Counted from the first letter of the stretch, positions 5,034-58,406 are shown. The stretch is DNA of 64,000 nt from Candidatus Delongbacteria bacterium (GCA_041675285.1 JBAYTZ010000014.1:22891-86890); one strand, 5' to 3'. Notes: generated by a model from the sequence alone, not told the origin. Program-made: numbers and translations.

Positions 5034-5189
5034 CACTGGAACAATTGGCTTTCATCCCTTCGTTGCAGCTAAATGCTTGATAGTCAAAAGGTTGAGTGTT
5101 TCATTCTTGTGACAATTTTGACCCGTCAAACGCCGGTCAAATGGGTCCTATCCCGGTCTGATATTTGAAGGGTAACGAGCGAGGTGAGG

Positions 5190-6353
5190 ATGCTGAGGAT
5201 TCGATTCACGAAAGCGGCCCTGGAGGCCCTGCAGGGGGATGGTGCGAAGCGCACGTGGGTGTTCGACGATCAGGTGCCCGCGCTGGCCTGCATGGTGACC
5301 CCCGCGGGCGGGAAGTCCTTCTACGTGGTGAAGCACCGCAAAGGGCGCACACACCAGGTGCGCCTCGGCAGCGTGCAAGAATTGGCGGTGGATCGCGCCA
5401 GGCGCATGGCCATCGACATGGTGATGGAGATTCTAGCGGGCAGGGGGCCCGCGCCGGCGCGCCAAGTTGTGGAGGACGTGCCAGCCGAGCTCACGCTGAT
5501 GGAGGCATTTGAGGAATACATGGCGCACGCGGCCACCCGGCGGCGAGACGTGACGCTGGCAGAGTACCGGCGTGCCTGGGACATGCACCTGAGCACGTTG
5601 CAGGGGCGCCCTGTGCGCGAGCTGCGGCGGAAGGACGTGGAGGCCCTGCATCAGCGAATTGGGAAGGACAACGGCCGTATCGCTGCCAACCGCCTGGTGG
5701 CCACGCTGAAGGCTGTCCTGCATCGCGCCATTGCCGTGCACGAACTGGGCATTCCCAACCCCGCTGCGCGCATCGAGTTCTTTGAAGAACAGGAGCGCAC
5801 GCGACGGCTGGAAGCCCACGAGCTGCCGGCGTTCCTGAAGGCAATAGACGAGGATCCCAGCCGCGACCTGCGTGACTTCATCTTGCTCCTGCTCTTCACG
5901 GGAGTGCGCAAGACCAACCTGCTCGCCATGCGTTGGGAGCATGTATCACGCGAGAAGGCGCTCTGGACGATCCCAGGTGGGGAGTCGAAGACCCACCGCG
6001 AACTCCATGTGGTCCTATCCTCTCACGCCATGGCCATCCTGGAGCAGCGCGCGGCTGGGCATGCTGGGCCTTTCGTGTTCCCTGGACGCCAGAAGGGACA
6101 CATGGCATCACCGCAGAACGGCTGGGACCGCATTTGCGTGCGGGCCGGCCTCACCGACCTTCACATGCACGACCTGCGCCGCAGCCTGGCTTCCTTTCAG
6201 ATCGACACAGGCACGCCGCTGGAGGTGATCCAAAAGACGCTGGGTCATGAGTCCAAGGTGACTACGGAGATCTACGCCAGACTGGCGCTCGATCCCGTGC
6301 GGGCGAGTGTGGAGCGGGCGACGGAAGAGATGCTGCGGGCGAAGAAGGACTAA
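5190..6353 (+). CDS. int: tyrosine site-specific integrase, P4-type (N-terminal arm-binding DUF4102-like domain + catalytic domain)
   Basis: N-terminus KAALEALQGDGAKRTWVFDDQVPALACMVTPAGGKSFYVVKHRKGRTHQVRLGS is typical of P4-like integrases. C-terminal catalytic motifs HDLRRSLASF...LGHESKVTTEIYARL (H-x-x-R ... Y). RBS GAGG upstream of ATG 5190 (the track used an upstream GTG at 5184). Confidence 0.9.
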   Translation: MLRIRFTKAALEALQGDGAKRTWVFDDQVPALACMVTPAGGKSFYVVKHRKGRTHQVRLGSVQELAVDRARRMAIDMVMEILAGRGPAPARQVVEDVPAELTLMEAFEEYMAHAATRRRDVTLAEYRRAWDMHLSTLQGRPVRELRRKDVEALHQRIGKDNGRIAANRLVATLKAVLHRAIAVHELGIPNPAARIEFFEEQERTRRLEAHELPAFLKAIDEDPSRDLRDFILLLLFTGVRKTNLLAMRWEHVSREKALWTIPGGESKTHRELHVVLSSHAMAILEQRAAGHAGPFVFPGRQKGHMASPQNGWDRICVRAGLTDLHMHDLRRSLASFQIDTGTPLEVIQKTLGHESKVTTEIYARLALDPVRASVERATEEMLRAKKD

Positions 6354-6376
6354 GGCCACCGCACAACTGGCGGTGC

Positions 6377-6502
6377 AGCCTGGCTCACTTCCAGATTGAC
6401 GCCAGAACGCCGCTTGAGGCGGTTTAGAAGGAGCTGGGGCACGAGTCCAAGACGACCACTGAGATCTATGCCAGGATGGCACCGGAACCCCGTTCGGGCT
6501 AA
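6377..6502 (+). pseudogene. degenerate duplicate of the integrase 3' end (integrase C-terminal fragment with an in-frame stop)
   Basis: Translation SLAHFQIDARTPLEAV*KELGHESKTTTEIYARMAPEP parallels the intact Int C-terminus SLASFQIDTGTPLEVIQKTLGHESKVTTEIYARLALDP. Roughly 75-80% nucleotide identity by eye. Confidence 0.6.
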
Positions 6503-6877
6503 TCATGAGCAAACGATAGAGCATGTTCGAATTCCAAAGGAGTAGTAGCTTCCTTGGTCTGATGCATCATCCGAATTGCCGGACTGCAATCGGGGCAAGA
6601 ATTCCGTTGCGTCCAATGTGTCTCTAATCTGATGCCCCGGTCCGTGCTCGGTTCGTACTTACATCCGAGGCAATGGCGGAATATGACAGAGCAAGTCTTG
6701 ACAAGTCCCCCCTCTCAATCCGTCTCGATAGCGAACCCGCGTAGGTCGCATAAAGCCTATCTCGTTATACTGCGCGCAGCGTGCTTTTTCTCTGACGGGT
6801 CAAGGGGATGCGCCAGTCACATAAGATCCTGCGGGGTTTTATCTAGACTGTCTAATTCTTAGTTATGCCGAAGCAAA

Positions 6878-7822
6878 TTGAAATGTGAGAACTGGAACAT
6901 GTCTGATACGAAGTTTAGGGAACTTAAATTCAGATTACGGCTTTGGACGAACCGAATGCGATTTCAGATTTTGCGTAGTAAGAGAGGAATGCCGCTGAGA
7001 CTATACCTTGATCTTAGGTATAGGAGATTTGTACGGTGGACTATTTGGATGTTGGCAATGACAGGTCTATTGTCATCGTTCATTTCTTTTCAATCAGTAG
7101 TTGTGGCGTTTGTCTTTGGTTTGGTATTGTTTATCCTTGGTAAGGTTTTTGAGTTTTTCGCCTTTGCGCATCCTGCCGCATTTCTCCACGCACTTCCTAC
7201 ATTTGATATTGATCCAGCAAAGTGGACGGGCATGGTGTTTGGATATGCTTGTCCACCTGACAAATCGATTCCTGATGTTCCACTTGTGGGAATGGCTATC
7301 TCCGATCATAGTTATGCGAGGCAGCTGTCAGAACTCTTATTAGTTTGGTCGGACCAAGAAAAAGACGACAAGGATGGTTGCATTGTGGTAAGAGTAATTA
7401 TTCTCAATGAATCTGAGTATATGATCATCTGCAGACCTGGGATAAATAGAAAGAGAGCGAAAGATTTTTTTGACTTGCAGCGCCAGAATCTCAGCAAAGT
7501 GTCATTGATGGATATCGTTGTCGAACACCATGGAATGATTGTGTTTGGAAAGCGATGTGTGATCACAGCAAGCTCGTTCTTCCCCAAGTTTCGCGAAAAG
7601 TATAAAGATGGGACACCGGTTATATTTGGCTTCTTTGACGCGGACCGTCCAGAACTGGGCTTCATTGATGCTCTACCGCAGTTTAGGTTGTCTTCGTTTT
7701 CAATTGTCCGAAAAAATGAGCTGACAAGGCATGACCCGGAATATGATTTGCTGCCGCTTTGGGAAACTGGTGGAGTTTGGCAAGGCCCAGGTGAGCCGCC
7801 TACTCGGAAATCTTCGGCATAA
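6878..7822 (+). CDS. cassette 1: hypothetical membrane protein (2 N-terminal TM helices + cytosolic domain)
   Basis: 314 aa. Hydrophobic stretches LAMTGLLSSFISF and VVVAFVFGLVLFILG. No recognisable catalytic motif. Confidence 0.5.
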   Translation: MKCENWNMSDTKFRELKFRLRLWTNRMRFQILRSKRGMPLRLYLDLRYRRFVRWTIWMLAMTGLLSSFISFQSVVVAFVFGLVLFILGKVFEFFAFAHPAAFLHALPTFDIDPAKWTGMVFGYACPPDKSIPDVPLVGMAISDHSYARQLSELLLVWSDQEKDDKDGCIVVRVIILNESEYMIICRPGINRKRAKDFFDLQRQNLSKVSLMDIVVEHHGMIVFGKRCVITASSFFPKFREKYKDGTPVIFGFFDADRPELGFIDALPQFRLSSFSIVRKNELTRHDPEYDLLPLWETGGVWQGPGEPPTRKSSA

Positions 7823-7944
7823 CATGTGCTTGCAGCCGACTTTGCGCCTGTCACGGCGCTTGCGAGAAGTGAGCGAAGAGGAAGACAAAGAAAGCTAAGG
7901 CAAGCGCCGCGCCAGGCGCGCCGCGGCTGAAGCCAACGTTATGT
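7817..7944 (+). repeat. attC-like site 1 (GCATAAC ... GTTATGT)
   Basis: Inverse core overlaps the TAA stop. Internal inverted repeat GCGCCTGTCACGGCGCTTGC / GCAAGCGCCGCGCCAGGCGC. Shares a conserved family sequence with sites 3 and 5. Confidence 0.6.
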
Positions 7945-7976
7945 GCAGTTGAAGTTGTCATGCAAAGGAACATAAA

Positions 7977-9671
7977 ATGACACCCGCAGAATTTGAGCAA
8001 TCCGTTGATAAAGCTGTTGAGCGACTGCAGATATTCGGTCTTCCCTCAAAGTGCATATTCGGTGCTGTGTTCGGTGTGATTGATAATTTGTTTAACGGTA
8101 AGAGATTTAGTGAAAACATCGAGCCAAGAATCGATGCAGGCTGCGCACTGATTGGTCGACTCTCCTATATGGCACCACTGTTACTTACATGCGATAGTAC
8201 GCAGATAGGTAGTAGCGCACTTGACACACAACAGGCTTACTTCTCCGTCGATTCAGATGGAGAACAGTTAAAGCTATTGCAAGCATATGGCCATTTCTGT
8301 GAGATAATGCCTGAAGTACATCGTGGATACTACAAGGTCATAGAATGCACTACAAACCGGTTGCGACTCGAACATAGCAGCCCTGAATTCAGGCACTCTG
8401 AATCGCTAGATATCATACTATCAGATTTAGCGTTGCCCTACCTTGTTCGTGTTCCTACAAACTACATGAATATGTTTGATAGGCAGGCAGAGCAATTACC
8501 AAAAGGAGACAGTGAGTTTCTAAACAAGACACTGGAAATTCTGTTTAATCATCACGCTACTCACACATTTGAAGTGCCAATATTATCATCCACAGGCTTT
8601 CTTTCGGGAGTTGGTGTATCCTATGAGGAATTTAAGCGTTTCCGTGCTGCATGGTTTGCATTCGCAGACTATTGTTTAGGAATGGCAGCAGCGATATCTC
8701 GATTAGGTGTAAACGACCCTAGCAGACAAGAGCAGTTGTTGCCTGAGCTATTCGAATGGCAGACCATAAACTTTAAAGAATATTTCTGCAAAGATCTAAT
8801 TATAAAAATCTCCAATATCCATCCCGATTCATATGAGAAGATTCTCAGCTTGTACTCATTCTACACTAATAATGAGGAATCTGACATGCGGTTCGGAGAT
8901 GGTTTTTTTCCGCCATTTATTCGGTACAAAGAATCTATCTGCTTCAATCCAAATACTCTTCAAATCATGCTTTCAGAAAGAAACATTCCCTATGTATTGA
9001 ACAAAATTGATCGAAAAAGATTTGATGGTGAGATATCAGAATACATGGAACCCCAGTTGATAAGTATTGCTGTAAAGCTGTTGAAGGCAATTGGCAATTG
9101 GGTGATAGTTGAGAACAAAGCCTGGGCGGGGGGTGAATTCGATATTCTGGTATATGCCCAACATGAAAACGTTGTACTGCATATCCAAGCAAAATCGGCC
9201 ATACCAGCACAAGGCGCAAGAATGATCAAGGCAAATGAAAGCCGCATCAAAGAAGGATTAAGGCAACTAAGAGTTTTCAGAGAAAAGCCTCAATCTTTTC
9301 AGGACTCGATCCTATCTAAGGCATTGGGCTTGAAAGTCTGCAACGCTTTAGTTTTAGATTCAGTACTTAGTCGTTCCAGTTTTGGAACTCATAACCTATG
9401 GTCAGAACTTGATAACACAATTCCATTGTCACCGACAATACTGTTGCACCTAGTGAGGAAGTACAAAGACTCAACACAACAAATTTTATTAACGGATATT
9501 AAGAATGAGATTGAGAGTTTCTTCGAGTTTATTTTGGATGATATGTGTCCGATATGGTCGGAAGCAATACTTGAAATTTCCGATAAGCAAGTTCTCTTTC
9601 CGCTGCTTGAGTTTGATGCAAACAATCTATCAAAACTGCGCGAAAGACTATGGAACTACTACGCAGTTTAA
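7977..9671 (+). CDS. cassette 2: hypothetical protein with a possible C-terminal PD-(D/E)xK nuclease-like motif
   Basis: 564 aa. Segment WAGGEFDILVYAQHENVVLHIQAKS fits D ... (E/Q)xK. Otherwise no similarity I can assign. Confidence 0.5.
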   Translation: MTPAEFEQSVDKAVERLQIFGLPSKCIFGAVFGVIDNLFNGKRFSENIEPRIDAGCALIGRLSYMAPLLLTCDSTQIGSSALDTQQAYFSVDSDGEQLKLLQAYGHFCEIMPEVHRGYYKVIECTTNRLRLEHSSPEFRHSESLDIILSDLALPYLVRVPTNYMNMFDRQAEQLPKGDSEFLNKTLEILFNHHATHTFEVPILSSTGFLSGVGVSYEEFKRFRAAWFAFADYCLGMAAAISRLGVNDPSRQEQLLPELFEWQTINFKEYFCKDLIIKISNIHPDSYEKILSLYSFYTNNEESDMRFGDGFFPPFIRYKESICFNPNTLQIMLSERNIPYVLNKIDRKRFDGEISEYMEPQLISIAVKLLKAIGNWVIVENKAWAGGEFDILVYAQHENVVLHIQAKSAIPAQGARMIKANESRIKEGLRQLRVFREKPQSFQDSILSKALGLKVCNALVLDSVLSRSSFGTHNLWSELDNTIPLSPTILLHLVRKYKDSTQQILLTDIKNEIESFFEFILDDMCPIWSEAILEISDKQVLFPLLEFDANNLSKLRERLWNYYAV

Positions 9672-9691
9672 TGGGAATCTAAATTGTAATA

Positions 9692-9822
9692 GCACATAAC
9701 AACTGCATGAAGCTGATGCCTCGCCTTGTCGCGGCCTTTGCCCTGGCAGATGACGCCTGCGCGTCAGGCTTGACGAGCAAAGCCCGCGCCAAGCCGGTCA
9801 CAGCTTATGCAGAACGTTATGC
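9692..9822 (+). repeat. attC-like site 2 (GCACATAAC ... GTTATGC)
   Basis: Inverted repeats GGCCTTTGC/GCAAAGCCC and CTGCATGAAGCTGATGCC/GGTCACAGCTTATGCAG. Ends 15 bp before the cassette 3 start (RBS AAGGAG + TTG). Confidence 0.55.
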
Positions 9823-9836
9823 ACAAGGAGCAGTAG

Positions 9837-10517
9837 TTGTCTAATCAAGAGATTGAAGAAACGACAGGCGATAGGCTGTCTCAGGCTAAGATCTACTTCG
9901 CATTTGTCAACGATCATGCCTCTTCACTTGATGACAAGGCGCGTACTCTTTTAACGATCGTATCATTACTAATCGGAACAGGGGTTCTGACTTTTTTCAA
10001 AGCGACTTTTGACAGTCAAGCAACCCTTAGCATTCGTCTAGCTTTTGTGGTGCTTGAATTGTCTCTATTGGCAACCTCAGCTGTTGCATTCTTCAAAATT
10101 CTGAACGTTTTGCGACTTCACGGATATAAGGGACCGCCTGATGCAAAAGGATTCCTGGAAAAGTTCAGAACAGAAGATGCCAAGACGACGAGGGAATCAC
10201 TGGCGCATTATTATGCTGCTGCGGCGGCAGAAAATTCAGAGCAAGTAAACACGATGGCCTCATGTTTGAAGGAGGCTTTCATTTGGACAAAAGTCGCATT
10301 CGGGGTGTTTCTGTTGTCAATCGTTACGTTAACACTCGCAATGTCATTTGGTGGAGAGCCAAAAATGTCAAACCAGAATGAAGCTCCAAAAAATCCCGCA
10401 AGCGGGACAACATCAGGTCAAGGATCGCAACCAACTCAACCGGCATCATCAGCACCGCCTGAACCTAAGCCAGTTCCGGGAACTCGAATTGAAAAGAGCG
10501 ATACACCTGGCAAGTAG
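9837..10517 (+). CDS. cassette 3: small 3-TM membrane protein with a low-complexity S/P/T-rich C-terminal tail
   Basis: 226 aa. TM segments LLTIVSLLIGTGVLTFF, LAFVVLELSLLATSAVAFF and VAFGVFLLSIVTLTLAMSF. Resembles small membrane effector/sensor proteins of defence systems (SLATT-like topology), but this is only topology-level similarity. Confidence 0.5.
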   Translation: MSNQEIEETTGDRLSQAKIYFAFVNDHASSLDDKARTLLTIVSLLIGTGVLTFFKATFDSQATLSIRLAFVVLELSLLATSAVAFFKILNVLRLHGYKGPPDAKGFLEKFRTEDAKTTRESLAHYYAAAAAENSEQVNTMASCLKEAFIWTKVAFGVFLLSIVTLTLAMSFGGEPKMSNQNEAPKNPASGTTSGQGSQPTQPASSAPPEPKPVPGTRIEKSDTPGK

Positions 10518-10527
10518 AAGTACGTAT

Positions 10528-10653
10528 GCATAACATGCCGTGCAGCCGACTATGCGCTTGTCACAGTGCTTACAGAACTTGACACAAAGAAACGTCGGTA
10601 AGACGAGGCAAGCGCCGCGCCAAGCGCGACGCGGCTGACGCCAGCCGTTAGGC
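10528..10653 (+). repeat. attC-like site 3 (GCATAAC ... GTTAGGC)
   Basis: Same sequence family as site 1 (TGCAGCCGACT.TGCGC.TGTCAC ... GCAAGCGCCGCGCCA.GCGCG.CGCGGCTGA.GCC). Confidence 0.6.
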
Positions 10654-10666
10654 ATTTGGGGGAAAG

Positions 10667-11674
10667 ATGATCAGAACAGCAGCGCAAGAAATCGAAAAAG
10701 TGGAAATGGGTAGACCGCACTTAGTCATTCTTGGCGCAGGGGCAAGTTACGCATCTACACCAACTGGCGATCGATTCGGAAAGCATCTCCCGCTGATGTC
10801 GAATTTGATTGAAATCCTTGAACTTGATGACATCGTTTCGAAATCTGGAATTGACTGTAGCAAGGGCAATTTTGAAACATTCTATTCGGAGCTTTACTTG
10901 CGAAAGGATATGGAATCGCAACGGAGAGAGCTCGAAGAGCGCATTCATCGCTACTTTAGCAGTTTGGAGTTACCGGAAGAACCCACTATCTACGACCATC
11001 TTGTTCTCAGTCTGCGCGAGAAAGACTATGTAGCGACATTCAATTGGGATCCTTTCCTGGTTCAGGCAATAAAGCGAAATGGCCGACGCTTCCCAATGCC
11101 CCGTCCACTTTTTCTCCATGGAAATGTAGCTGTCGGCTATTGTCGTCATGGGCATTCAATGGGTGACATTGGAAGTTGTTGCTCTAAATGTGGCGAGAGC
11201 TTTGTTCCGACAAGGATTCTGTACCCTGTTGCAGAGAAGAACTATCAAAACACTGAATTCATAGATCGGCAGTGGAGGGCAATCCAGGCAATTCTAAATG
11301 ATACATTTATGGTCACAGTTTTTGGCTATGGTGCCCCAGCCACAGATGCGAGTGCGGTTGAATTGCTGAAAACTGCCTGGGGTGGCGGCGACACTCGGGT
11401 TATGGAAGAGATTGAGATCATCGATATTCGCGATGATAATGAGTTAGAAGATCTTTGGTCACCGTTCATACATTCACATCATTACCGAGTGCACAGCTCC
11501 TTCTACGATTCGTGGATCTCAAAACATCCCCGCAGAACGGGCGAGGCCTATATCGATCAGTTCATCGATGCGATGTTCATCGAAGACAATCCTATTCCAC
11601 GTGGTTTGAGTTTTACCGGACTCTGGGATTGGTTTCAACCTTTGTCAGATGTAGAATTTGAGGCAAATGTCTGA
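10667..11674 (+). CDS. cassette 4: SIR2-like (SIR2_2 family) NAD-binding/NADase-type protein with an internal Cys/His Zn-ribbon-like insert
   Basis: Four SIR2_2 motifs in the same order as in ThsA-type SIR2 domains: LVILGAGAS (GAGxS), ATFNWDPF (TTNYD-like), LFLHGNV (catalytic HG), VFGYGAPATD (FVGFSFxD-like). Insert CRHGHSMGDIGSCCSKCGE resembles the sirtuin Zn module. Confidence 0.7.
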   Translation: MIRTAAQEIEKVEMGRPHLVILGAGASYASTPTGDRFGKHLPLMSNLIEILELDDIVSKSGIDCSKGNFETFYSELYLRKDMESQRRELEERIHRYFSSLELPEEPTIYDHLVLSLREKDYVATFNWDPFLVQAIKRNGRRFPMPRPLFLHGNVAVGYCRHGHSMGDIGSCCSKCGESFVPTRILYPVAEKNYQNTEFIDRQWRAIQAILNDTFMVTVFGYGAPATDASAVELLKTAWGGGDTRVMEEIEIIDIRDDNELEDLWSPFIHSHHYRVHSSFYDSWISKHPRRTGEAYIDQFIDAMFIEDNPIPRGLSFTGLWDWFQPLSDVEFEANV

Positions 11675-11795
11675 CAAGAACTTGCAATTGCCCCGCCCAG
11701 CGTCACGCCGCTTGCGTTGGACGCGACGCTAATCTTGGACGGAAATGTTCGCAAGCGGCGCGCCTCTGGGTGGGCAATTGAAGTCAACGTTAGGT
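11674..11795 (+). repeat. attC-like site 4 (... GTTAGGT)
   Basis: Inverted repeats GCAATTGCCCCGCCCAGCGTCACGCCGCTTGCG / CGCAAGCGGCGCGCCTCTGGGTGGGCAATTG. 3' core GTTAGGT lies 25 bp before the cassette 5 ATG. The 5' inverse core is poorly matched (CAAGAAC). Confidence 0.5.
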
Positions 11796-11819
11796 TCACA
11801 AGGAACTGAAGTGACGTAA

Positions 11820-12704
11820 ATGAAGATATTCCCTGATCCACCGCGCTTTGCTGATGAAGTCATCAGGTCATGTAAGCGAACGAATGATTATAGACCTATA
11901 ATATTCGAGTGGTATCAACACGTAATGATGCTTGCTAATGAGGTTTCCCTAATAAGCTTTGAATCACCTTCGGTTAGACAATTGAATAGATTGCAACATA
12001 TTGTTCTAGCTGGACTTCTATTTAGATGCAGTAGACTCATGAACTCGGTAGCATTAATTTCACGGAATGGCGAGTTTGGTGAAACTACAGCTATTCTGGA
12101 TCGATGTATATTTGAATCTTCAATAAAAGTTGTTTGGTTATGTCGAAGCGGGACTTATGACAAGTTTGTGCGATTCATGGCCAATGGTCTGAAAGCCGAT
12201 GTTTGTTTGAAGAATGAAATCGAAAAGGAGATCAAATCGCGAGGAGGAGCAGTACTGGAGATCGAAAATCGAATGCTGAAGTCAATTGAGAATTTCTTAG
12301 AGATTTCAAATCTTAGTGAAGAGGATGTAAGAGATTGTAAATGTCTTCCTCGTTTTGATATCATGATGCGTGAAATTGGGGAAAGTGATCTTGGTTATAT
12401 AGTAGGACAGAAGATTAACTCACACTTTGTTCACGGAACATGGTCTGGAATGCTACATCATTGTCTGAAGGTTGGTGATGATGGACTGTTGCATGTGGGA
12501 AGAAGTAGATGTCAAACGCACTTCAGTCAGTATTTAGGTACGGCGCTACAGGTTGTCGTTGCGGTATATGCTTATTGTGAATGGATGTTTGATCAGTCAA
12601 CTGCAAAAGTTTTCAAGGATGCTCTTCAGTTTGTTTATGATGAAGTGCTCAAGGTGGAACAGTCTGCAATGGGACGAGATTTTGACGAGGTGAATGGAAC
12701 CTAA
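11820..12704 (+). CDS. cassette 5: hypothetical protein
   Basis: 294 aa, low-GC ORF with plausible protein composition. No assignable motif. Confidence 0.5.
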   Translation: MKIFPDPPRFADEVIRSCKRTNDYRPIIFEWYQHVMMLANEVSLISFESPSVRQLNRLQHIVLAGLLFRCSRLMNSVALISRNGEFGETTAILDRCIFESSIKVVWLCRSGTYDKFVRFMANGLKADVCLKNEIEKEIKSRGGAVLEIENRMLKSIENFLEISNLSEEDVRDCKCLPRFDIMMREIGESDLGYIVGQKINSHFVHGTWSGMLHHCLKVGDDGLLHVGRSRCQTHFSQYLGTALQVVVAVYAYCEWMFDQSTAKVFKDALQFVYDEVLKVEQSAMGRDFDEVNGT

Positions 12705-12830
12705 CAACAGCTTGCAGCCGACTTTGCGCCTGTCACGGCGCTTGCAGGCTGGATTTGAAGAAACGTCGGTAGGAAAAAGCAAGCGACGCGCCAGACGCGT
12801 CGCGGCTGAAGCCGCGGAGCCAAAGTCCTC
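12700..12830 (+). repeat. attC-like site 5 (ACCTAAC ...; conserved family body but no canonical GTTRRRY 3' core)
   Basis: Same family body as sites 1 and 3 up to GCGGCTGAAGCC, then diverges (GCGGAGCCAAAG). A lone GCCTAAC occurs about 60 bp downstream (12888-12894). Confidence 0.45.
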
Positions 12831-30739: not shown

Positions 30740-31276
30740 ACCATGGACCCGAATTCTGGACGTGCCCGATCGCAAACCCGGGCAGTCGGGCAGAAATGGA
30801 GATTCCGTGATACAAACTGACAGGAGTATTTTGCCCGACTGCCCGAGTTTGCCTTCGGGCAGTTCGAATACAGGCAACCAACGTGTAGCTTTGAAAAAGC
30901 CCGAAGTCCTGCCCAAAGTACATCCCATGGGGGTGTCACCCCCCCCTGAGAAATCAAAAAACCTACCCGCGGGACTCCGCCCGCACGAACTCAGTTTTTT
31001 TCTCCTTTTAAGAAGTAAATGCCAGTGCGGGCAGAGTCCCGCGGGAAGTCGCTTTTTCGTCTTACAGACCCAAGGTGACACCCCTGGGAAAACAGGTTTG
31101 GGCGGTCTTTGGTCTAACACCTCAGGGTGGGAGATTCGTCACTCCCAAGGCGAACGCCGCAATTCCGCCCTAACCGCCGGTCTTCCTCCTGTCCCCCCAT
31201 GCCGCCGCCGCGCGGCCGCAGGCGCGCCCCACCACGCCGCGAACGCCATCAGCCGAACCCACGGAAGGATCCTCCC
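30740..31276. promoter_or_regulatory. 0.5-kb structured non-coding region: several hairpins including a 21-bp-stem hairpin (30966-30986 / 31025-31045, 38-nt loop with T7 run) flanked by inverted GGGGTGTCACCCC / GGTGACACCCC motifs
   Basis: Inverted repeats read directly from the sequence. No credible ORF. Lies between the regulatory/replication genes and the nuclease gene. Confidence 0.5.
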
Positions 31277-37923: not shown

Positions 37924-39203
37924 TGGTCGACAAGGGCTTTCCAGCCGGTTACGAGCCGCAGGGGAGCACTGAGGCTGCCGAGTGGTACCGCCTAGCCGCT
38001 GAGCAAGGGAATACAATGGCCCAGCGCAATCTGGGGGTCATGTACTACAACGGCGAGGGCGTGCTGCAAGACTACACAGAGGCTGTCAAGTGGTTTCGAC
38101 TAGCGGCTGAGCAGGGGTACGCGCCGGCTCAGTATAACCTGGGGGTTGCGTGCGCCAAGGGCCTGGGCGTGCCGCAGGACTACGTTGAGGCCGTCAAGTG
38201 GTACCGCCTGGCTGCTGAACATGGGAACGCAGGAGCCCAGTTAAATCTGGGATTCTTGTACCACAGCGGCGAGGGCGTGCCGCAGAACGGCGCTGAAGCC
38301 GTCAAGTGGTACCGCCTTGCGGCGGAGCAAGGCAATGTAAGTGCCCAGAACAACCTGGGAGTCATGTACAAGAGCGGCCAGGGTGTGCCGCAGGACTACA
38401 TTGAGGCCGTTAAGTGGTACCGCCTTGCGGCGGAGCAAGGACATGTAAGTGCCCAGAACAACCTGGGGGACATGTACAGTGGCGGCCAAGGCGTGCCGCA
38501 GGACTACGCAGAGGCCGCCAAGTGGTCCCGCCTTGCCGCGGAGCAGGGGTGCGCGCCGGCACAGTACAATCTAGGGGTTGCATGCGCCAAAGGCAGGGGC
38601 GTGCCGCATAACGACGCAGAGGCAGTCATGTGGTACCGCCTAGCCGCTGCGCAGGGGTACGCACCGGCTCAGTACAACATGGGAGTCATGTACGACGACG
38701 GCCGAGGCGTGCCGCAGGACTACGTTGAGGCTGCCAAATGGTACCGCCTAGCCGCTGAGCAGGGCCATGTAAGTGCCCAGAACAACTTGGGGGGCATATA
38801 CGGCGGCGGACAAGGCGTGCCGCAGGATGACGCAGAGGCTGCCAAGTGGTTCCGCCTAGCAGCGGAGCAAGGCCATGTAGGTTCCCAGTACAACCTGGGG
38901 GTTGCGTGCCACCTCGGCCAAGGCGTGCCTCAGAACTACGCGGAAGCAGCCAAGTGGTACCGCCTAGCCGCTGAGCATGGGTACGCACCGGCTCAGTACA
39001 ACCTGGGTGTCATGTACAACGACGGCCGAGGCGTGCCGCAGGACTATATCATGGCTCACCTGTGGTGGAACCTTGCTGCCACCAGCGGGGATGAGGACGC
39101 GGTGAGGGGTAGAGGCACTGTGGCTGGCAAGATGACCCCTGCCCAAATCGCAGAGGCGCAACGTCTCGCCCGCGAGTGGAAGCCCACACCGGAGAAGCCA
39201 TGA
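37923..39203 (+). CDS. Sel1-repeat (SLR/TPR-like) protein, ~11 tandem 36-aa repeats
   Basis: Repeating AEAVKWYRLAAEQG.A.AQ.NLG.MY..G.GVPQDY units. GGAGG RBS. Stop overlaps the methyltransferase start. Confidence 0.85.
   Translation: MVDKGFPAGYEPQGSTEAAEWYRLAAEQGNTMAQRNLGVMYYNGEGVLQDYTEAVKWFRLAAEQGYAPAQYNLGVACAKGLGVPQDYVEAVKWYRLAAEHGNAGAQLNLGFLYHSGEGVPQNGAEAVKWYRLAAEQGNVSAQNNLGVMYKSGQGVPQDYIEAVKWYRLAAEQGHVSAQNNLGDMYSGGQGVPQDYAEAAKWSRLAAEQGCAPAQYNLGVACAKGRGVPHNDAEAVMWYRLAAAQGYAPAQYNMGVMYDDGRGVPQDYVEAAKWYRLAAEQGHVSAQNNLGGIYGGGQGVPQDDAEAAKWFRLAAEQGHVGSQYNLGVACHLGQGVPQNYAEAAKWYRLAAEHGYAPAQYNLGVMYNDGRGVPQDYIMAHLWWNLAATSGDEDAVRGRGTVAGKMTPAQIAEAQRLAREWKPTPEKP
37960..39110 (+). repeat. DNA-level tandem repeat (period 108 bp) encoding the Sel1 repeats
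   Basis: Recurring ...gtggtaccgcct.gc.gc.gagca.gg... units visible in the sequence. Confidence 0.6.
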
Positions 39204-42200
39204 GCAAGACCCAAGACCGGAACTGGGAGCGCCTGCGCTCCATCAAGACGATCGAGGAGCTGCTAGCCTATTTGAGGGAGGAGCTTGACTGGCCGCTCGA
39301 AGGCGCGGACGTCGAGGACGTCGCCTTCGAATACACACCCGAGGAGCTGGGCCTGGAGCCCGCCCTGGCGGTTAAGATCGATTCCATTCACCGTCTGCGT
39401 CCGCTGAGCACGCACCAACCCTGGGGCATTTTCTTCGTCGACTTCGAGCCCAAGAATCTGCCCGTCACGGCCCTGCGCCGCATCCTGGGCCGCGTGGTCT
39501 TGAAGAAGCGCGCCAAGGGCAGCGCGCAGGCCTGGCACGCAGACGACCTGCTCTTCATCTCCACCTACGGGCAAGGGCCCAGCCGCCAGATCTGCCTGGC
39601 GCACTTCTCCGCCAGCGAGGGAGCGCGCGACCTACCCACCCTCAAGGTGCTGGGCTGGGACGAGCAGGACACGGCACTGCACCTTGCCCACGCCGCCAAC
39701 ACCCTGGTCAAGCACCTCACGTGGCCGGAAAACGAGAACGACCTGGAGATCTGGCGCAAGACTTGGAGCGCAGCCTTCACGCTGGGGCATCGGGAAGTCA
39801 TCTCCACGGCCAAGGATCTCTCCATTCGGCTGGCGGCGCTGGCGAGGGCGATTCGCCTGCGCATCACCACGGCGCTGGCGATCGAGAGCGAGAGCGGCCC
39901 GCTCACGCGTCTGATGCATGCCTTCCGCGAGGCCCTGGTCCACGACCTGACGGTGGAGAGCTTCGCCGACATGTACGCCCAGACCATCGCCTACGGCCTG
40001 CTCTCGGCGCGCATCACTGATCCACACAAGAAGACTGCTGACGATTTCGCAGGTCACTTGCGCACCAACCCCTTCCTGCGGGAGCTGATGGAGACCTTCC
40101 TGAAGGTGGGTGGACGGCAAGGGAAAGCGGGCGGGTCAGGCATCGACTTCGATGAGCTGGGCGTCTTCGATGTGGTGGAGCTGCTGGACGACGCCAACAT
40201 GGAGGCCGTCGTCCGCGACTTCGGCGACAGGAACCCACAGGAAGACCCAGTCATCCATTTCTATGAGGAGTTTCTTCGGCATTACGATCCAGGTGAGAAG
40301 AAAAAGCGTGGCGTCTTCTACACGCCGCGCCCGGTGGTAAGCTACATCGTGCGCTCGGTGGACGAGCTGCTGCGAACGGAGTTCGGCCTGGAGGACGGGC
40401 TGGCCGACACCACCACGTGGGGCGAGATGCTACAGCGACAGCCCGGCCTGCAGCTGCCCAACCTCTCAGAGGACTCCGACCACCCGCGCCTGCTGGACCC
40501 GCAGCATCCCTTCGTGCAGATCCTCGACCCGGCCACGGGCACGGGCACCTTCCTCGTTGAGGTCATCGAGATCATCCACCGCACGATGACCACCAAGTGG
40601 ACGGCCCACGGTCACAGCGAGAAGCAGATCGAGGCGCTCTGGAACGCCTATGTGCCGCGCCACCTGCTGCCGCGCCTGCACGGCTACGAGCTGCTCATGG
40701 CGCCCTACGCCATCGCCCATCTCAAGATCGGCCTCAAGCTCCATGAGACGGGCTACCACTTCGACAGCGAGGAGCGGGCACGCATCTACCTGACCAACGC
40801 CCTGGAGCCGGCCAACGACAAGCAGATCACGACGGCCATGCTGCCGGCGCTGGCGCACGAAGCTCAAGCGGTCAGCATGATTAAACGTCACCAAAGGTTC
40901 TCCGTCATCATTGGTAATCCTCCATATGCAAGAGATTCCGCAAACCGCAGTGATTATGCGGAGAATCTCGTAGCAATCTACAAGGAGGACGTGAGGAATG
41001 AACGAAACATCCAACCTCTGTCTGATGACTATGTGAAATTCATCGGGATGGCTCAAGCCGTAATGTCATCATGCGGTACAGGAATTGTTGGATTCATCAC
41101 AAATCACAGCTTTATTAAGGGAGTAATTCATCGAGGGCTAAGAAGACGTGTTTGTCAGTTCTTCCAGAGGGCATACTTTTTGGACCTTCACGGCAACTCG
41201 AACATCAACGAGCAGCCGCCAAAGGACATTGAGGACGAAAACGTCTTTGACATTCGACAAGGTGTTGCAGTCTCATTGCTGACCAGAGTTTCCGCTGTTG
41301 TTGGTTATAAAGACCAAACTAAAGTTTCTGAACTCTGGGGAAAGCGGACAGAGAAATATGAATATTTACTGAAGCAAAGACATGGTGATAATGATTGGAT
41401 TCTCGTTGAACCAAAACCGCCGGAATACGAACTCATTGTAGCCGGTGATGGATCTACTCAAGTTGAATTTGATTCGTTATTCCACCTGCATGATTGGTTT
41501 CCAACTTCAGCGACTGGATTTATCACGCACCGTGACGAATTGGTGATCGATTATGATCAGTCAAACCTTATGCGAAGGATTCACGATTTAGTGGATAAAA
41601 ATATTTCTGATGAAGAGGTTATCAAGAAATATTCCTTAGAGAGCAATTCGGACTGGAATCCAATTGATGCTAGAAAACAACTTCGGGCAGTAAAGGAGTT
41701 ACAAGAAAGAGTTGTTCGTTGCACTTATCGCCCGTTTGATAGTAGATGGTGCTGGTGGGGACGAGAACTAATGGATCGCCCGCGTCAGGAGTTATTTGAG
41801 TTTTTCGTAAAACCTAACTTGACGCTGTTATGTAAACGACAGAACAAAAGGACTCCTTTCTCTTACGCATTTGTTGCCTCTGAAATAACAGAAAGTTGCA
41901 CATTTGAGAGTGCACATGCGAATAATGTTGCGTTTCCAATCTTCGTCCACACAAATGACCTGTTGTTTGGGAAGAACATCATTCATCCAAACATTGGTGA
42001 TGAAATTGTAAGTAGAGTTCGAAGACGGCTTAATTTGAATTTAGTTTCGCTTGCTATGGGTGATTTGAAGGTGACCTGCGGGCCGCGCGATTTATTGCAC
42101 TACGTATATGCAACCATTCATGCACCTAGCTACCGGACGAGATATGAGGCGTGCCTGATTAAAAGCTTCCCGCGCATTCCGTTGACATATAATCTGGACC

Positions 42201-42715
42201 TGTTCCGCGACCTCACACTTTTTGGCGGCAGGCTCGTCGCTTTGCATCTGCTGGAGTCGCCCACCCTCGACCACTTCATCACCACCTACGCCGGCCCGCC
42301 CCAACCAGAAGTCGGGCGCGTGGGCTGGTCGGATGGCACAGTCTGGTTGGATGCCGCGGCCACCAAGAAAGGGCAGCCCGCCACGCCCGGCAGAATGGGC
42401 TTCAAGGGCGTGCCCGAGGAAGTCTGGAACTTCCACATCGGCGGCTACCAGGTCTGCGAGAAGTGGCTGAAGGACCGCAAGGGGCGGCGGCTGTCGGACG
42501 AGGACATCGCCCATTACCAGAAGATTGTCGTGGCGCTGAAGGAGACGATCCGCCTGATGGGCGAGATCGACGAGGTCATTGAGAAGCATGGCGGGTGGCC
42601 GGGGGCGTTTGCCGCAGGACCGGCGGCGGGTGCGGCGGACTATCCGACCTGCGAGACGGGGCAACGCAAGGCGGCGGAAACGGGCGACCTGTTTGGGCAA
42701 AATGCGGAGTCTTGA
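39200..42715 (+). CDS. type IIG restriction-modification / PglX-like gamma-class N6-adenine DNA methyltransferase (1171 aa), GC-mosaic
   Basis: Motif X/I GVFYTPRPVVSYIV and LDPATGTGTFLVEV, motif IV VIIGNPPYARDS, long C-terminal TRD-like region. GC drops from ~65% to ~40% between ~40860 and ~42200 within the ORF. Confidence 0.85.
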   Translation: MSKTQDRNWERLRSIKTIEELLAYLREELDWPLEGADVEDVAFEYTPEELGLEPALAVKIDSIHRLRPLSTHQPWGIFFVDFEPKNLPVTALRRILGRVVLKKRAKGSAQAWHADDLLFISTYGQGPSRQICLAHFSASEGARDLPTLKVLGWDEQDTALHLAHAANTLVKHLTWPENENDLEIWRKTWSAAFTLGHREVISTAKDLSIRLAALARAIRLRITTALAIESESGPLTRLMHAFREALVHDLTVESFADMYAQTIAYGLLSARITDPHKKTADDFAGHLRTNPFLRELMETFLKVGGRQGKAGGSGIDFDELGVFDVVELLDDANMEAVVRDFGDRNPQEDPVIHFYEEFLRHYDPGEKKKRGVFYTPRPVVSYIVRSVDELLRTEFGLEDGLADTTTWGEMLQRQPGLQLPNLSEDSDHPRLLDPQHPFVQILDPATGTGTFLVEVIEIIHRTMTTKWTAHGHSEKQIEALWNAYVPRHLLPRLHGYELLMAPYAIAHLKIGLKLHETGYHFDSEERARIYLTNALEPANDKQITTAMLPALAHEAQAVSMIKRHQRFSVIIGNPPYARDSANRSDYAENLVAIYKEDVRNERNIQPLSDDYVKFIGMAQAVMSSCGTGIVGFITNHSFIKGVIHRGLRRRVCQFFQRAYFLDLHGNSNINEQPPKDIEDENVFDIRQGVAVSLLTRVSAVVGYKDQTKVSELWGKRTEKYEYLLKQRHGDNDWILVEPKPPEYELIVAGDGSTQVEFDSLFHLHDWFPTSATGFITHRDELVIDYDQSNLMRRIHDLVDKNISDEEVIKKYSLESNSDWNPIDARKQLRAVKELQERVVRCTYRPFDSRWCWWGRELMDRPRQELFEFFVKPNLTLLCKRQNKRTPFSYAFVASEITESCTFESAHANNVAFPIFVHTNDLLFGKNIIHPNIGDEIVSRVRRRLNLNLVSLAMGDLKVTCGPRDLLHYVYATIHAPSYRTRYEACLIKSFPRIPLTYNLDLFRDLTLFGGRLVALHLLESPTLDHFITTYAGPPQPEVGRVGWSDGTVWLDAAATKKGQPATPGRMGFKGVPEEVWNFHIGGYQVCEKWLKDRKGRRLSDEDIAHYQKIVVALKETIRLMGEIDEVIEKHGGWPGAFAAGPAAGAADYPTCETGQRKAAETGDLFGQNAES

Positions 42716-42750: not shown

Positions 42751-43455
42751 ATGGAACCAGGTCCGATCCGTTACCGGGACTTGCCGGATGATTTCCTGCT
42801 GCGGGCGGAATTGGTTTTTCACGCCATTGAAGATGCCGGCCTGATGGAGCGAACGGATTTCCTCGTCAACTTCCAGCGCGAGATTCATCCCATGCGGGAA
42901 TTGATGCTGTGGGAGCGGCTTGCCGTGGCCTATCGGAGCCGGTGGCGCAACCGAGCGGGCTCGGTCGCGGAGCGCAAGTCGTGGTTGACCTTGCTTCTTC
43001 TGGCATCCAGTGGCGCGACGGCACATGAAGGGGATCTGACTGGGGCACTGGAGCTGGAAGAAGCGCGCTTGGCCTTTCAGGAGGCCGCCACGGCGGGTAG
43101 AAACTGCTTGTCGAGCGCCGTTGATGCGCGTGCGGTGAAACAAAGCACCCTGGCGTTGGCGGCGATTCTGAGTCGGGACATTGGTCGTGCCATTCAATTC
43201 CACTGGAACCAGATCGACCGGCTGTTGGAATCGGAAGCATGGGAACCGGATGAGGTGGAAGCTCGGCTGCGAGAACTGCATGCCACGGTGGACGAACTGG
43301 CTGATGAACGCGAAAACCTGTCAATAGAACTCAATGACCGGTCTGATGAGCTGGAAGCCATGATCCAGGGGAAGCGCGAGATACTTGAAAGGGAGCGTCG
43401 CGAGGAGCTGCTGCGGCAATCCAGTCTGGGCAATCTATTCGGCGAGGAGAACTGA
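42751..43455 (+). CDS. hypothetical coiled-coil protein (first gene of a 3-gene operon)
   Basis: GAGGTGA RBS. 234 aa. C-terminal coiled coil (ELHATVDELADERENLSIELNDRSDELEAMIQGKREILERERREE). Confidence 0.45.
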   Translation: MEPGPIRYRDLPDDFLLRAELVFHAIEDAGLMERTDFLVNFQREIHPMRELMLWERLAVAYRSRWRNRAGSVAERKSWLTLLLLASSGATAHEGDLTGALELEEARLAFQEAATAGRNCLSSAVDARAVKQSTLALAAILSRDIGRAIQFHWNQIDRLLESEAWEPDEVEARLRELHATVDELADERENLSIELNDRSDELEAMIQGKREILERERREELLRQSSLGNLFGEEN

Positions 43456-43456
43456 G

Positions 43457-44620
43457 ATGGACGTGCTGGAACTCCAACACATCGGGCAAATCCAAAAAGC
43501 CCGAATCGAGTTTGGGGATCTCACCGTTTTGGTGGGTCCTCAAGCCACTGGCAAGAGCATAACACTACAGCTACTCAAGTTGTTGGTTGACATGCGCCAC
43601 GTTCAGGAAGACCTTCGTCGTCACGGCTTGGACTGGGGCGGCAAGCTGCCTGAGTTCCTTGACCTCATGCTTGGCGAAGGCATGCACTCCATCTGGTCTG
43701 AGAAGAGCACGATTCGCTGGCAGAACCGCGATGTGGACATGGTAGCGCGCGCCAAGCGTCGCATCAAGGCGCCTGAGCTTGGGCAAGGAGAGCAGATGTT
43801 CTTCATCCCAGCGCAACGAGTATTGACTCTGCGCGACGGCTGGCCGCGCCCCTTCACTGATTACTCCGCCGGTGATCCCTTCGCAGTGCGGGAGTTCAGC
43901 GAAAAGTTGCGCCTGCTGATGGAGCAGGAATTCGTTCAGGGTGATCAGCTCTTTCCACGCGCTAATCGGTTGAAACAAATCTATCGAGACGAGTTACGTG
44001 CTCACGTGTTCGCCGGGTTTGATTTGAAGGTGGACCGTTCCCGACCACAGAAGCGTATGGTTCTAGGTAATGCACATGGCGAACTCCCGTTTATGGTTTG
44101 GTCGGCGGGGCAACGAGAATTCATGCCGCTATTGCTCGGCCTCTATTGGTTGATGCCACCCGGGAGAATGGCAAAGCGGAAGTCCGTGGATTGGGTTGTT
44201 GTAGAAGAGCTTGAAATGGGGCTCCATCCGCGAGCTATCAGCCTGATGTTACTGCTGGTGCTGGAGTTGCTCTCACGCGGCTATAGAGTCTGTTTGTCGA
44301 CACACTCACCACAAGTCTTAGAAATGGTTTGGGCCTTGAATCACTTACGTGAGCAGAATTCCAGTGAGTCAAAGTTAGGCAGATTGTTTGACGTGCAAGC
44401 TGGCACTCAATTAAAGGCTGTTTTTCATGATACAATGAAGCGAGTGTTTAAGGTCTACTATTTCGAGCGTGATGGTGCAGTACGAAACATTTCTGGGCTT
44501 GATCCAGGTTCAACAGAGTCCTTTGTTGCAGGTTGGGGAGGCCTAACGGACTTCAGTGCAAGAGCCAATGAAGTTGTGGCATCTGCCGTGGCTGATGGGC
44601 TGCGGAGGCGCAAAGCATGA
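43457..44620 (+). CDS. ABC-type (AAA_15/AAA_21-like) ATPase of the OLD/abortive-infection type
   Basis: Walker A LVGPQATGKS. Distal D-loop/Walker B block DWVVVEELEMGLHP typical of the AAA_21 family. Start 2 nt after the upstream stop. Confidence 0.7.
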   Translation: MDVLELQHIGQIQKARIEFGDLTVLVGPQATGKSITLQLLKLLVDMRHVQEDLRRHGLDWGGKLPEFLDLMLGEGMHSIWSEKSTIRWQNRDVDMVARAKRRIKAPELGQGEQMFFIPAQRVLTLRDGWPRPFTDYSAGDPFAVREFSEKLRLLMEQEFVQGDQLFPRANRLKQIYRDELRAHVFAGFDLKVDRSRPQKRMVLGNAHGELPFMVWSAGQREFMPLLLGLYWLMPPGRMAKRKSVDWVVVEELEMGLHPRAISLMLLLVLELLSRGYRVCLSTHSPQVLEMVWALNHLREQNSSESKLGRLFDVQAGTQLKAVFHDTMKRVFKVYYFERDGAVRNISGLDPGSTESFVAGWGGLTDFSARANEVVASAVADGLRRRKA

Positions 44621-45072
44621 CTTTCACACAAGCAGTTGCAGCCTCACCTGACATTGCAAGCGCATATCAGCGAGGTTTAGGAGCATTGAAGGCTGTAGAT
44701 CGTGCTCATATTACGGTCAATAAGTCCACAAAACTCAAGGGAAGTGTTGATATTGATTCAACGTTGCAATCTAAGTGCCCAACTGAACACCGTTGGGATT
44801 ATGGGATTGGTAAGTCACAGGGTGGGAAGAAGGGTGATAAAGTCATCTGGGTTGAAATCCATCCAGCAAAAGACGGTGAAATCAATACGATGATGGACAA
44901 ATTGGCCTGGTTGAAGTCTTGGCTTCAGACATCCGCTACTGACTTGGATGCATTGTCGCGTGAATTCATATGGATATCAAGCGGAAAAACTACCATCACG
45001 CAAGGTAGCCCCGCAGCGAGAAAAATGGCCTTGGCTGGGTTGAGATTAGCGGGACATCATCTTCATCTTTGA
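44617..45072 (+). CDS. hypothetical small protein (151 aa) translationally coupled to the ATPase
   Basis: 4-nt ATGA overlap with the ATPase gene. No recognisable motif. Confidence 0.45.
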   Translation: MTFTQAVAASPDIASAYQRGLGALKAVDRAHITVNKSTKLKGSVDIDSTLQSKCPTEHRWDYGIGKSQGGKKGDKVIWVEIHPAKDGEINTMMDKLAWLKSWLQTSATDLDALSREFIWISSGKTTITQGSPAARKMALAGLRLAGHHLHL

Positions 45073-49599: not shown

Positions 49600-49723
49600 G
49601 GGGTCTCCGTGGTTGGGTGGCGGCAAGGCGGGATCGCAAGGTCCCGCCCGCGCATGTCTCTGGACATGAGTCTGCACTAGTCGGGTCCGAAAGTCAAGTC
49701 TCAACCCATTGAGAGTAAACGAG

Positions 49724-57791: not shown

Positions 57792-58204
57792 GGGTGCACT
57801 GGTTCTACGTCTTCGACCTGGAGGCTGAAGGACGCAAGAAACCCATCGGCGCGTGGATTCTCCAGGACGGTGTGCTCGATTACGTCTTCGACCCCGCCTA
57901 CCCGGACGACGAGGCGATCCCATCAGACCTCATCAATCGCATGCTAGAGGTTGGCGAAAAGGTGCTTGGCCTGGAAGGTTTGAGATACTGGCGAGAGCAC
58001 GTGGGCTATACCCATAGCGCTAGCCAGATCAAGGAAGAAGACGTGACGGATTACACCATGTGGTTCTGGGAAAGGCAGGCCGCTGTGACCGAGGGCTGTA
58101 GTTTGAGACGCGGAGGGGGGCTCGGGGCAGGCGCTGGCCAACTTCCGACGAAGAGCGCAATTGCCCAGACTGAGACCCGTTGGACGGCAATGAGTTCGAC
58201 TTAG
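57788..58204 (+). CDS. hypothetical protein
   Basis: ATGA-coupled. 138 aa. Confidence 0.35.
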   Translation: MRVHWFYVFDLEAEGRKKPIGAWILQDGVLDYVFDPAYPDDEAIPSDLINRMLEVGEKVLGLEGLRYWREHVGYTHSASQIKEEDVTDYTMWFWERQAAVTEGCSLRRGGGLGAGAGQLPTKSAIAQTETRWTAMSST

Positions 58205-58406
58205 CCGACCTGCCTTGTTTGCCTCCGCATCCACGAGCCCGTCGTCCTCAAGGTTACCCTCTTTAGGGACATACTGGAAGATCACCATGCACGCCAGGCA
58301 TTGGAGAACTTGGAGATCCAGAAAGCGCTAGAGCATCGATGACGAGTTGCAGATTCTTCTTCAGTGTAAAGAGTATTAAGTCAGAGTCTGCGCTAAATGG
58401 GTTAAA

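Follow-up and report, generated by a model that had tools for sequence, protein, structure and literature searches.

How did five low-GC genes, each followed by a long palindrome, come to lie together at the edge of a genomic island in a high-GC bacterium, and what kind of recombination put them there? We address this question for a 64-kb stretch of metagenomic DNA (64,000 nt; hereafter the window) that is deposited under the label Candidatus Delongbacteria bacterium (GCA_041675285.1 JBAYTZ010000014.1:22891-86890) and whose position 1 corresponds to position 22909 of the metagenome contig ERZ27247358 k141_1917367 (ENA, 104 kb). The sequence searched covers contig positions 13.3-92.2 kb of 104.3 kb, that is, the window with 9.6 kb of upstream and ~5.3 kb of downstream flank. 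Our analysis gives good support to the reading of these genes and palindromes as an attC site cluster without an integron integrase (CALIN), which holds five cassettes and is located in an integrative island that is followed by a prophage.

The array consists of five co-oriented open reading frames (ORFs), all on the + strand, each equipped with its own ribosome-binding site and each followed by an imperfect palindrome of 126-129 nt (115 nt in the last case), the five sites being spaced 1.0-1.9 kb from start to start. It begins with a junction core, GTTATGC (6862-6868, + strand), which is the exact reverse complement of the R'' core GCATAAC of the first palindrome. The ORF of cassette 1 starts either with a TTG codon (6878-7822, 314 aa) or with the ATG at 6899 (307 aa) and is followed by site 1 (7817-7944, 128 nt; R'' GCATAAC, R' GTTATGT). 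Cassette 2 (ORF 7977-9671, 564 aa) ends in site 2 (9694-9822, 129 nt; R'' ACATAAC, R' GTTATGC), cassette 3 (9837-10517, 226 aa) in site 3 (10528-10653, 126 nt; R'' GCATAAC, R' GTTAGGC), and cassette 4 (10667-11674, 335 aa) in site 4 (11669-11795, 127 nt), which combines a degenerate R'' (GTCTGAC) with an intact R' (GTTAGGT). Cassette 5 (11820-12704, 294 aa) is followed by a truncated site 5 (12699-12813, 115 nt), in which R'' (ACCTAAC) and both arms are present and the R' core with its crossover point is gone; both cores are found in sites 1-3. GC content is 0.40-0.46 in the cassette ORFs and 0.58-0.60 in the attC sites, compared to 0.70-0.75 in the core genome to the left and ~70% in the host.

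An earlier reading, made from the sequence alone, had described five co-oriented low-GC ORFs that are each followed by a GC-rich palindrome, and this description holds throughout, whereas some of its details apply to part of the array only. The palindromes start at the stop codon in sites 1, 4 and 5, but sites 2 and 3 begin 23 and 11 nt past it; the initial GCATAAC/ACCTAAC gives way to GTCTGAC in site 4; and the terminal GTT-type R' core is present in sites 1-4 but missing from site 5. The right end of the array had been placed at 12830, which is 17 nt too far: homology to the attC family stops after GAAGCC at 12813, and, as it ends there without an R', the array terminates in a truncated attC site.

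On their sequence and predicted folds, the five repeats are attC sites, and the pattern they form is far beyond chance. Independent evidence comes from a covariance model (R2) in which only the R box, the L box and the 6-bp stem are paired and which we built from nine bona fide attC sites taken from complete integrons (class 1 and Marinobacter), namely those of dfrA1 and aadA1 (L172), of aadB, cmlA1 and blaOXA-10 (L173), and four from Marinobacter sp. CA1 (L174). Run across the whole window with filters off (128 kb of sequence for the 64-kb window), R2 returned the five sites as its top five matches, all on the + strand and with exact ends, the next-best match scoring 10.7 bits. Significant scores were obtained for sites 1 (38.5 bits, E 1e-6), 2 (28.4 bits, E 2e-4), 3 (30.4 bits, E 8e-5) and 4 (21.6 bits, E 0.0095); site 5 (14.5 bits) is not significant, because its R' core is absent. 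The failure of attC models on all five repeats, which the sequence-only reading had named as grounds for giving it up, was thus not observed. Rfam gave no match within the window.

A second model (R1) describes the attC family of the window itself and was trained on 36 metagenome sites together with window sites 1-4. It assigns 121.4 bits to site 1, 106.5 bits to site 3, 84.3 bits to site 4 and 103.6 bits to site 5, which was outside the training set. Sites 1, 3 and 5 have a conserved body in common (families D1 and D2), as had been noted before; site 2 departs from the family in sequence and retains its structure, including compensatory pairs. R1 also recognized, with exact boundaries, attC sites in class 1 integrons (dfrA1 50.4, aadA1 32.2, cmlA1 25.5 and aadB 18.6 bits), with no other significant match in 24 kb, and it detected an attC site behind each cassette of the Marinobacter integron.

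The predicted folds point in the same direction. According to the structural rules established for attC bottom strands, extrahelical bases lie opposite the cleaved AAC, the first and the last of them a 6-bp stem apart, in addition to an unpaired central spacer of ~5-6 nt; the first extrahelical base is usually G, and sites range from 57 to 141 bp in length (PMC5027507). Folded with DNA energy parameters, each of sites 1-4 forms on its bottom (-) strand a single long hairpin that starts with RYYYAAC (5' end), closes with GTTRRRY (3' end) and has a short unpaired spacer; two extrahelical bases of the 3' arm lie on either side of a 6-bp stem, [T]CGGCTG[C]AAGC. For sites 1 and 2, these bases have positions 23 and 16 when numbered from the 3' end (T23 and C16 in site 1), for site 3 positions 22 and 15, and the fold of site 4 has an extrahelical C plus an unpaired CG. 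Folding of the bottom strand, which had been suggested as a check, therefore yields the canonical geometry in sites 1-4, and the site lengths of 126-129 nt fall inside the known range. The first extrahelical base is C instead of the usual G, which we consider ordinary variation because the cmlA1 attC site has the same C and the same L box.

Within a linear cassette array, each R' contributes its last six bases to the cassette that comes next, and the 5' boundary core of a cassette is therefore expected to be reverse-complementary to the R'' of that cassette. This complementarity is 7/7 in four of the five cassettes, i.e., cassette 1 (GTTATGC at 6862/GCATAAC), cassette 2 (GTTATGT/ACATAAC), cassette 3 (GTTATGC/GCATAAC) and cassette 5 (GTTAGGT/ACCTAAC), and 5/7 in cassette 4. 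A true recombination junction thus forms the left end of the array, but not its right end. Together with the R2 scores and the folds, the complementary cores agree with the match to attC sites that had been proposed from the sequence.

Sites of the same family, for which the earlier reading had advised to look, occur well outside this window. An exact 21-base pattern from the conserved body identified 45 metagenome stretches, ~6 of which are chance matches and ~39 real, and one viral contig; the metagenomes are from lakes. (A 16-base attC pattern, with which a genome collection was scanned, gave chance matches only.) R1 maps ~90 sites in these metagenome loci, and often such sites have one orientation and distances of 0.6-1.4 kb. 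Of the 35 distinct sites for which enough upstream sequence is available, 32 coincide with the end of a same-strand ORF that is at least 60 codons long (median 189). Moreover, in six contig pairs the last 150 nt of a cassette are at least 97% identical, whereas the sequences are unrelated from 3-6 nt past the G of R', and this swapping of neighbors at G|TT is the mark that IntI-type exchange leaves. The attC family is lineage-specific and resembles in kind the families of sedentary chromosomal integrons, and the recurring event is the landing of cassettes of this family at different places, mobile elements included.

The genomic settings of the family are diverse. Two further arrays with four sites each (L140, L151) adjoin ordinary high-GC genes without a recombinase gene. 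A related prophage (L156 4747-6783, - strand; IMG/VR UViG_3300014205_009243) carries a two-cassette array of the family beside a Xer-like recombinase. The two-cassette array of this related phage is also present in L171 and L179 (5999-6123), its last attC site being truncated to the R'' core, and two other related viral contigs have no attC site within 10 kb of the portal gene. A second sample (Logan SRR6484325) contains four of the window's own cassettes with 100% identity; the five window cassette proteins have no homologues among the attC-family loci. Across the family, cassettes have a GC content of 37-48% and the surrounding genomes of 65-76%, a gap of 25-30 points, with attC sites at ~60% (window 6862-12813, L140 9500-13400, L156 4750-6800); two 500-nt intervals at one array end, at ~0.55-0.57, are the exception to the low cassette GC.

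An integron integrase (IntI) is not found near the array. The closest recombinase gene encodes the P4-like tyrosine integrase of the island (5184-6353, + strand; Pfam Phage_integrase PF00589, 85.3 bits), which has the N-terminal arm-binding and tyrosine recombinase domains of the P4 type, the arm domain being borderline (Arm-DNA-bind_3 PF13356, 26.7 bits, just below the cut-off of 27). Six nucleotides past its stop codon begins the C-terminal fragment of a second P4-like integrase (6359-6500, + strand), a pseudogene with an internal stop, the translation of which (SLAHFQIDARTPLEAV*KELGHESKTTTEIYARM) parallels the C-terminus of the intact enzyme and which suggests tandem islands and a subsequent deletion. 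In tblastn searches this pseudogene aligns with IntI1 (6359-6469) and with Marinobacter IntI (6362-6478) through the shared Tyr-recombinase motif only, and the 360 nt between it and the array head are without coding potential. The second recombinase of the window is Xer-like (48751-49752, - strand). Scored with TIGR02249, the integron integrase family (cut-off 265), the P4-like and Xer-like proteins reach 21.5 and 84.9 bits, respectively, compared to 406.7 bits for Marinobacter IntI and 507 bits for IntI1 as controls. The Xer-like protein aligns to IntI1 residues 139-315 with 134 residues of its own, which means that the ~40-residue IntI-specific insertion is absent.

In the window, the flanks and every locus of the family, tblastn with IntI1 and Marinobacter IntI as queries detected only these two recombinases, neither of which is an IntI, and it found no IntI remnant within 6300-6900. 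The absence of intI from the window and the P4-like nature of the adjacent recombinase, both stated from the sequence alone, are thereby confirmed, and no intI gene lies adjacent to the array in divergent orientation, as would be expected in a complete integron. An attC array with no IntI nearby is a CALIN; here, well over the minimum of two attC sites lie less than 4 kb apart, with no integron integrase within 4 kb. The independent attC model, the hairpin geometry, the cassette boundaries and the shuffling at G|TT thus bear out the earlier proposal of a cassette cluster without an integron integrase. Because related arrays adjoin quite different genes, some of them without any recombinase, the link to the P4-like integrase is incidental, and this enzyme appears to be a neighbor rather than a partner of the array.

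If the cassettes of this CALIN are still exchanged, the IntI would have to act in trans, from another place in the cell: it would bind the hairpins into which the bottom (-) strand folds, cut them at AA|C of R', and either release cassettes as circles through attC x attC recombination or insert further ones. The sites that flank cassettes 2, 3 and probably 4 are intact, and these cassettes should remain mobile; cassette 5 would be frozen, because its attC site has lost R'. The P4-like integrase would take no part in these reactions and would only mark the island end. Cargo tends to gather at island ends.

Several points weigh against this interpretation. The R2 model is home-made from nine sites and takes the place of IntegronFinder's attC model. 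The absence of an IntI applies to the window and the flanks read. No cognate IntI was found there, and any recombination of these very sites would rest on the indirect evidence of the footprint seen across the family. With site 5 lacking R' and site 4 having a weak R'', part of the array may be inert. Finally, a scan for consensus sigma-70 promoters and for terminators gave little information and no promoter upstream of cassette 1, and this consensus may not follow the promoter rules of the host. Elsewhere, the scan gave a 9/12 match at 7949-7978, before ORF 2, as well as matches within ORFs, none above the level of shuffled sequence, in line with the promoterless ORFs described earlier.

How the cassettes arrived may be recorded at the head of the array, where a candidate attI-like site (6846-6868, + strand) is composed of the motif GACTGTCTAATTCT, TTA and the junction core G|TTATGC. 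The head sequences of the window (GACTGTCTAATTCTTAG|TTATGC), L156 (GACTGTCCAATTCTATATTAG) and L140 (GAGCTGCTCTAATTGTATTTAG) contain this motif at the matching position 5' of the first cassette, the shared junction-proximal motif being GACTGTCYAATTCT, then G|TTA. In a shuffle test, 10 of 1000 shuffled sequences reached the score of the window-L156 comparison and 1 of 1000 that of L156-L140. The motif resembles the attI site of the Marinobacter integron (TATCTAATTGCTG|TTACGT), and its spacing resembles the L/R spacing of attI1. As judged from these resemblances, the head may be an attI site retained without intI or, equally, a preferred secondary target. The likeliest route of arrival would be an IntI-mediated insertion at such an attI-like or secondary site, with a later deletion at the right end.

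Quite possibly, if short of probably, the array has no integron platform in its past: the first cassette would have been put at an attG-type GWT site by a trans-acting IntI, and the others would have followed by attC x attC recombination. The precise G|TT left junction is what this capture de novo would leave behind, and cassettes of the family are present in mobile DNA at three places (the main array, a Hachiman insertion at 57.8-63.0 kb, and the two-cassette array of the related phage). The route itself is established experimentally, and of 2961 CALINs in 21,105 genomes, 95% are without a nearby intI pseudogene (bioRxiv 10.1101/2022.09.11.507474), as is the window array, which has no recognizable intI pseudogene adjacent to it. 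However, a conserved head motif is unexpected at arbitrary GWT sites, five cassettes are many for such a route, and the truncated site 5 demands an extra event. The comparison with single attC sites lacking an integron integrase (SALINs) and attG insertions, which IntI produces at GWT sites, is similarly divided: these also place cassettes outside an integron platform with a precise G|TT left junction, but they involve one cassette, as opposed to five cassettes and a conserved motif upstream of the junction here.

Tentatively, the array could instead be the remnant of a complete integron that kept its attI site at the head and lost the upstream intI by deletion, perhaps together with the events that left the pseudogene at 6359-6500. 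The head motif common to three arrays, with its likeness to Marinobacter attI and the attI1-type spacing, would be explained in this way, as would the right end, which with its truncated site 5 is a clear deletion scar. A precedent has already been described, as the CALIN of a Shewanella M16-3 prophage carries its own attI site at its head (PMC9892861). Yet the 360 nt from the pseudogene to the head show no IntI-like trace, and there is no IntI upstream of the L140 and L156 heads either, so that three separate clean losses would be needed; the motif, moreover, is short and was spotted post hoc, with modest support from the shuffle test.

A wider proposal, which we consider unlikely, is that integron cassettes dock on, and are shuttled by, the P4-integrase island and the temperate phage as integrase-less platforms, with at least three entries of cassettes, a head motif open to use in trans by a host IntI, and conflict- or defense-like cargo (SIR2-fold, PycTM-like, Hachiman). 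If this were true, phage and island would move a defense 'biobank' between hosts without carrying IntI. It is very improbable that the P4-like integrase or the Xer-like recombinase itself recombines the hairpins. This idea draws on proximity only, the array being located 0.5 kb from the P4-like gene and the L156 array 0.5 kb from the Xer-like gene, whereas both proteins are without the IntI signature, including its specific insertion in the Xer-like case, the L140 and L151 arrays have no nearby recombinase gene, and true IntIs act on the class 1 and Marinobacter attC sites that the window sites match.

That the palindromes are a dispersed repeat of the repetitive extragenic palindromic (REP) or miniature inverted-repeat transposable element (MITE) type, unrelated to cassette boundaries, or transcription terminators that resemble attC sites, is refuted, although the hairpins are GC-rich and follow ORFs and R1 gave 29 bits to an unrelated hairpin at 30943-31070: R2 cleanly separates the five sites from all else, the sites are strand-specific with RYYYAAC/GTTRRRY cores and obey the boundary-core rule, a same-strand ORF precedes the family sites as described above, the hairpins are not trailed by a T-tract on the coding (+) strand, and the swapping of neighbors exactly at G|TT rules out a REP/MITE origin.

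The proteins encoded by the cassettes are diverse. Cassette 1 codes for a protein with N-terminal membrane segments, and the products of cassettes 1 and 2 had no family match. Cassette 3 encodes a weakly PycTM-like membrane effector (PADLOC PycTM E 3e-4; the precomputed PF18967 match is marked weak), and cassette 5 a DUF5677 protein (Pfam PF18928, 54.3 bits). The cassette 4 protein is identical to NCBI protein MFA7331950.1, the metagenome-assembled genome of which is labelled Candidatus Delongbacteria bacterium, and belongs to a large family (3955 matches) without a Pfam domain. Its predicted fold is SIR2-like: the structure model (predicted local distance difference test 88.8) matches sirtuins (Foldseek E 2e-7, TM-score 0.34-0.54). 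PDB sequence searches with cassettes 1, 2 and 4 gave nothing useful. A homologue of the cassette 4 protein (58% identical) is encoded in the first cassette after IntI in the complete integron of Marinobacter sp. CA1, and elsewhere the family of cassette 4 does occur as a genuine integron cassette. The cassette cargo may have a defense or conflict role, which would fit recent reports on integron cassettes (bioRxiv 10.1101/2024.07.02.601686, 10.1101/2024.07.02.601719). The Marinobacter integron (CP071785.1; L174 3475-12226) is chromosomal and complete; an ISL3 transposase insertion separates intI from the first cassette, and the cassette after the cassette 4 homologue encodes a KAP NTPase.

Measured against the IntegronFinder definition, the array is an ordinary CALIN, with attC sites at short distances, co-oriented single-ORF cassettes and no IntI nearby; the truncated last attC site, the possible attI-like head and a cassette GC content 25-30 points below that of the host genome are particular to it, and there is no essential difference. 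CALINs on temperate-phage or prophage DNA are known, and attC sites of phages can be used by IntI1 in trans (Front Microbiol 2023, PMC9892861). Like these, the window array and that of the related phage are IntI-less and are carried by mobile DNA, but the main array of the window resides in a P4-integrase island in tandem with a prophage, the prophage itself has only a decayed attC site, and the two-cassette array of its relative is found at another position. With the attC families of sedentary chromosomal integrons, such as the Vibrio cholerae repeats, the window family shares a length of ~125 nt, a conserved body with a variable center and many cassettes per family; unlike theirs, its parent integron and IntI were not found in the sequence searched.

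Two attC sites of clinical integrons, those of dfrA1 and cmlA1, resemble the window family in sequence and not just in structure. The L box of the cmlA1 site (L173 4215-4284) is nearly the same, GCTGCAGCCGAC compared to GCTTGCAGCCGAC, including an extra G on the top strand, and the dfrA1 site (L172 5110-5204), the best of the class 1 matches to R1, has the inner stem CCTGTCACG...CGCGCCAGG in common. Both sites are shorter (70 nt in cmlA1 and 95 nt in dfrA1) and belong to mobile integrons beside IntI1. The likeness could be a lead to the source lineage of the dfrA1 and cmlA1 cassettes, and, combined with the GC gap between cassettes (~40-46%) and host (~70%), it may help to trace cassette origins.

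CALINs are already known, also from prophages, and our results leave the current understanding of integrons unchanged. They add a clean and well-delimited CALIN from a poorly known, high-GC uncultured lineage, and a large attC family (~90 sites in lake metagenomes). Cassettes of one family are present in both an island and a prophage, which speaks for the idea that cassettes spread away from integron platforms, carried by mobile elements of other kinds.

The surroundings of the array fall into three parts. To the left of position 5030 lies core genome with 70-75% GC, which encodes glycosyltransferases, with MotAB and LipA farther upstream. The closest LipA relatives that have a name reach only ~60% identity and represent mixed phyla, which leaves the Delongbacteria label given by NCBI unconfirmed. 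From 5.1 to 48.7 kb extends a separate island that starts with the P4-like integrase, has the array at its integrase-proximal end and further encodes a sigma factor, DinG-like and XPB-like helicases, a primase, a PLD-SNF2 helicase and a Type ISP enzyme. The third part, at 49.7-57.3 kb, encodes a terminase large subunit, a portal protein and a MuF-like protein of 1479 residues, and three IMG/VR viral contigs are related to this prophage. One of them (L179) is syntenic with the window over two segments, the first extending from 48.76 kb, at the Xer-like recombinase, to 57.82 kb and the second starting at 62.98 kb, and this places the beginning of the prophage at ~48.7 kb. No direct repeats that could be att sites of the island were detected between the left end and window position 69325, so the limits of the island rest on GC content and synteny only; the window contains no tRNA gene that would mark an attachment site.

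Between the two syntenic segments, a low-GC block of ~5 kb (57821-62979) is inserted into the phage backbone relative to L179. It encodes, on the - strand, the Hachiman proteins HamA (61639-62376) and HamB (59361-61664; PADLOC HamB E 5e-51) and a 259-aa ORF (58546-59325). At the edge of this block lies a decayed attC site (62464-62560, - strand) that is absent from L179 and is the only other copy of the family in the window; its alignment score to the family consensus is 64, compared to 21.9 +/- 4.0 for shuffled sequences. A weak match to the family consensus near 45.5 kb was rejected as GC-rich noise.

Within the island, two long imperfect palindromes of ~120 nt each (30754-30875 and 30943-31070) are located side by side between divergent genes. 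They are without AAC/GTT cores; the second is the hairpin matched by R1, which was rejected as an attC site for this reason and because R2 ignores it. The pair may represent an origin or a regulatory region. In the prophage, only the N-terminal third or so of the MuF-like head protein (52846-57285) matches head-morphogenesis families, and the remainder may be a fused cargo or toxin domain. The Type ISP enzyme of the island (39176-42715) contains a sharply low-GC stretch at 41-42 kb (42% GC), and beside it (43385-45072) an AAA_21 ATPase and a 151-aa ORF are encoded, which are low in GC as well. This stretch may be a swapped specificity region, and the neighboring genes may form a further defense module.

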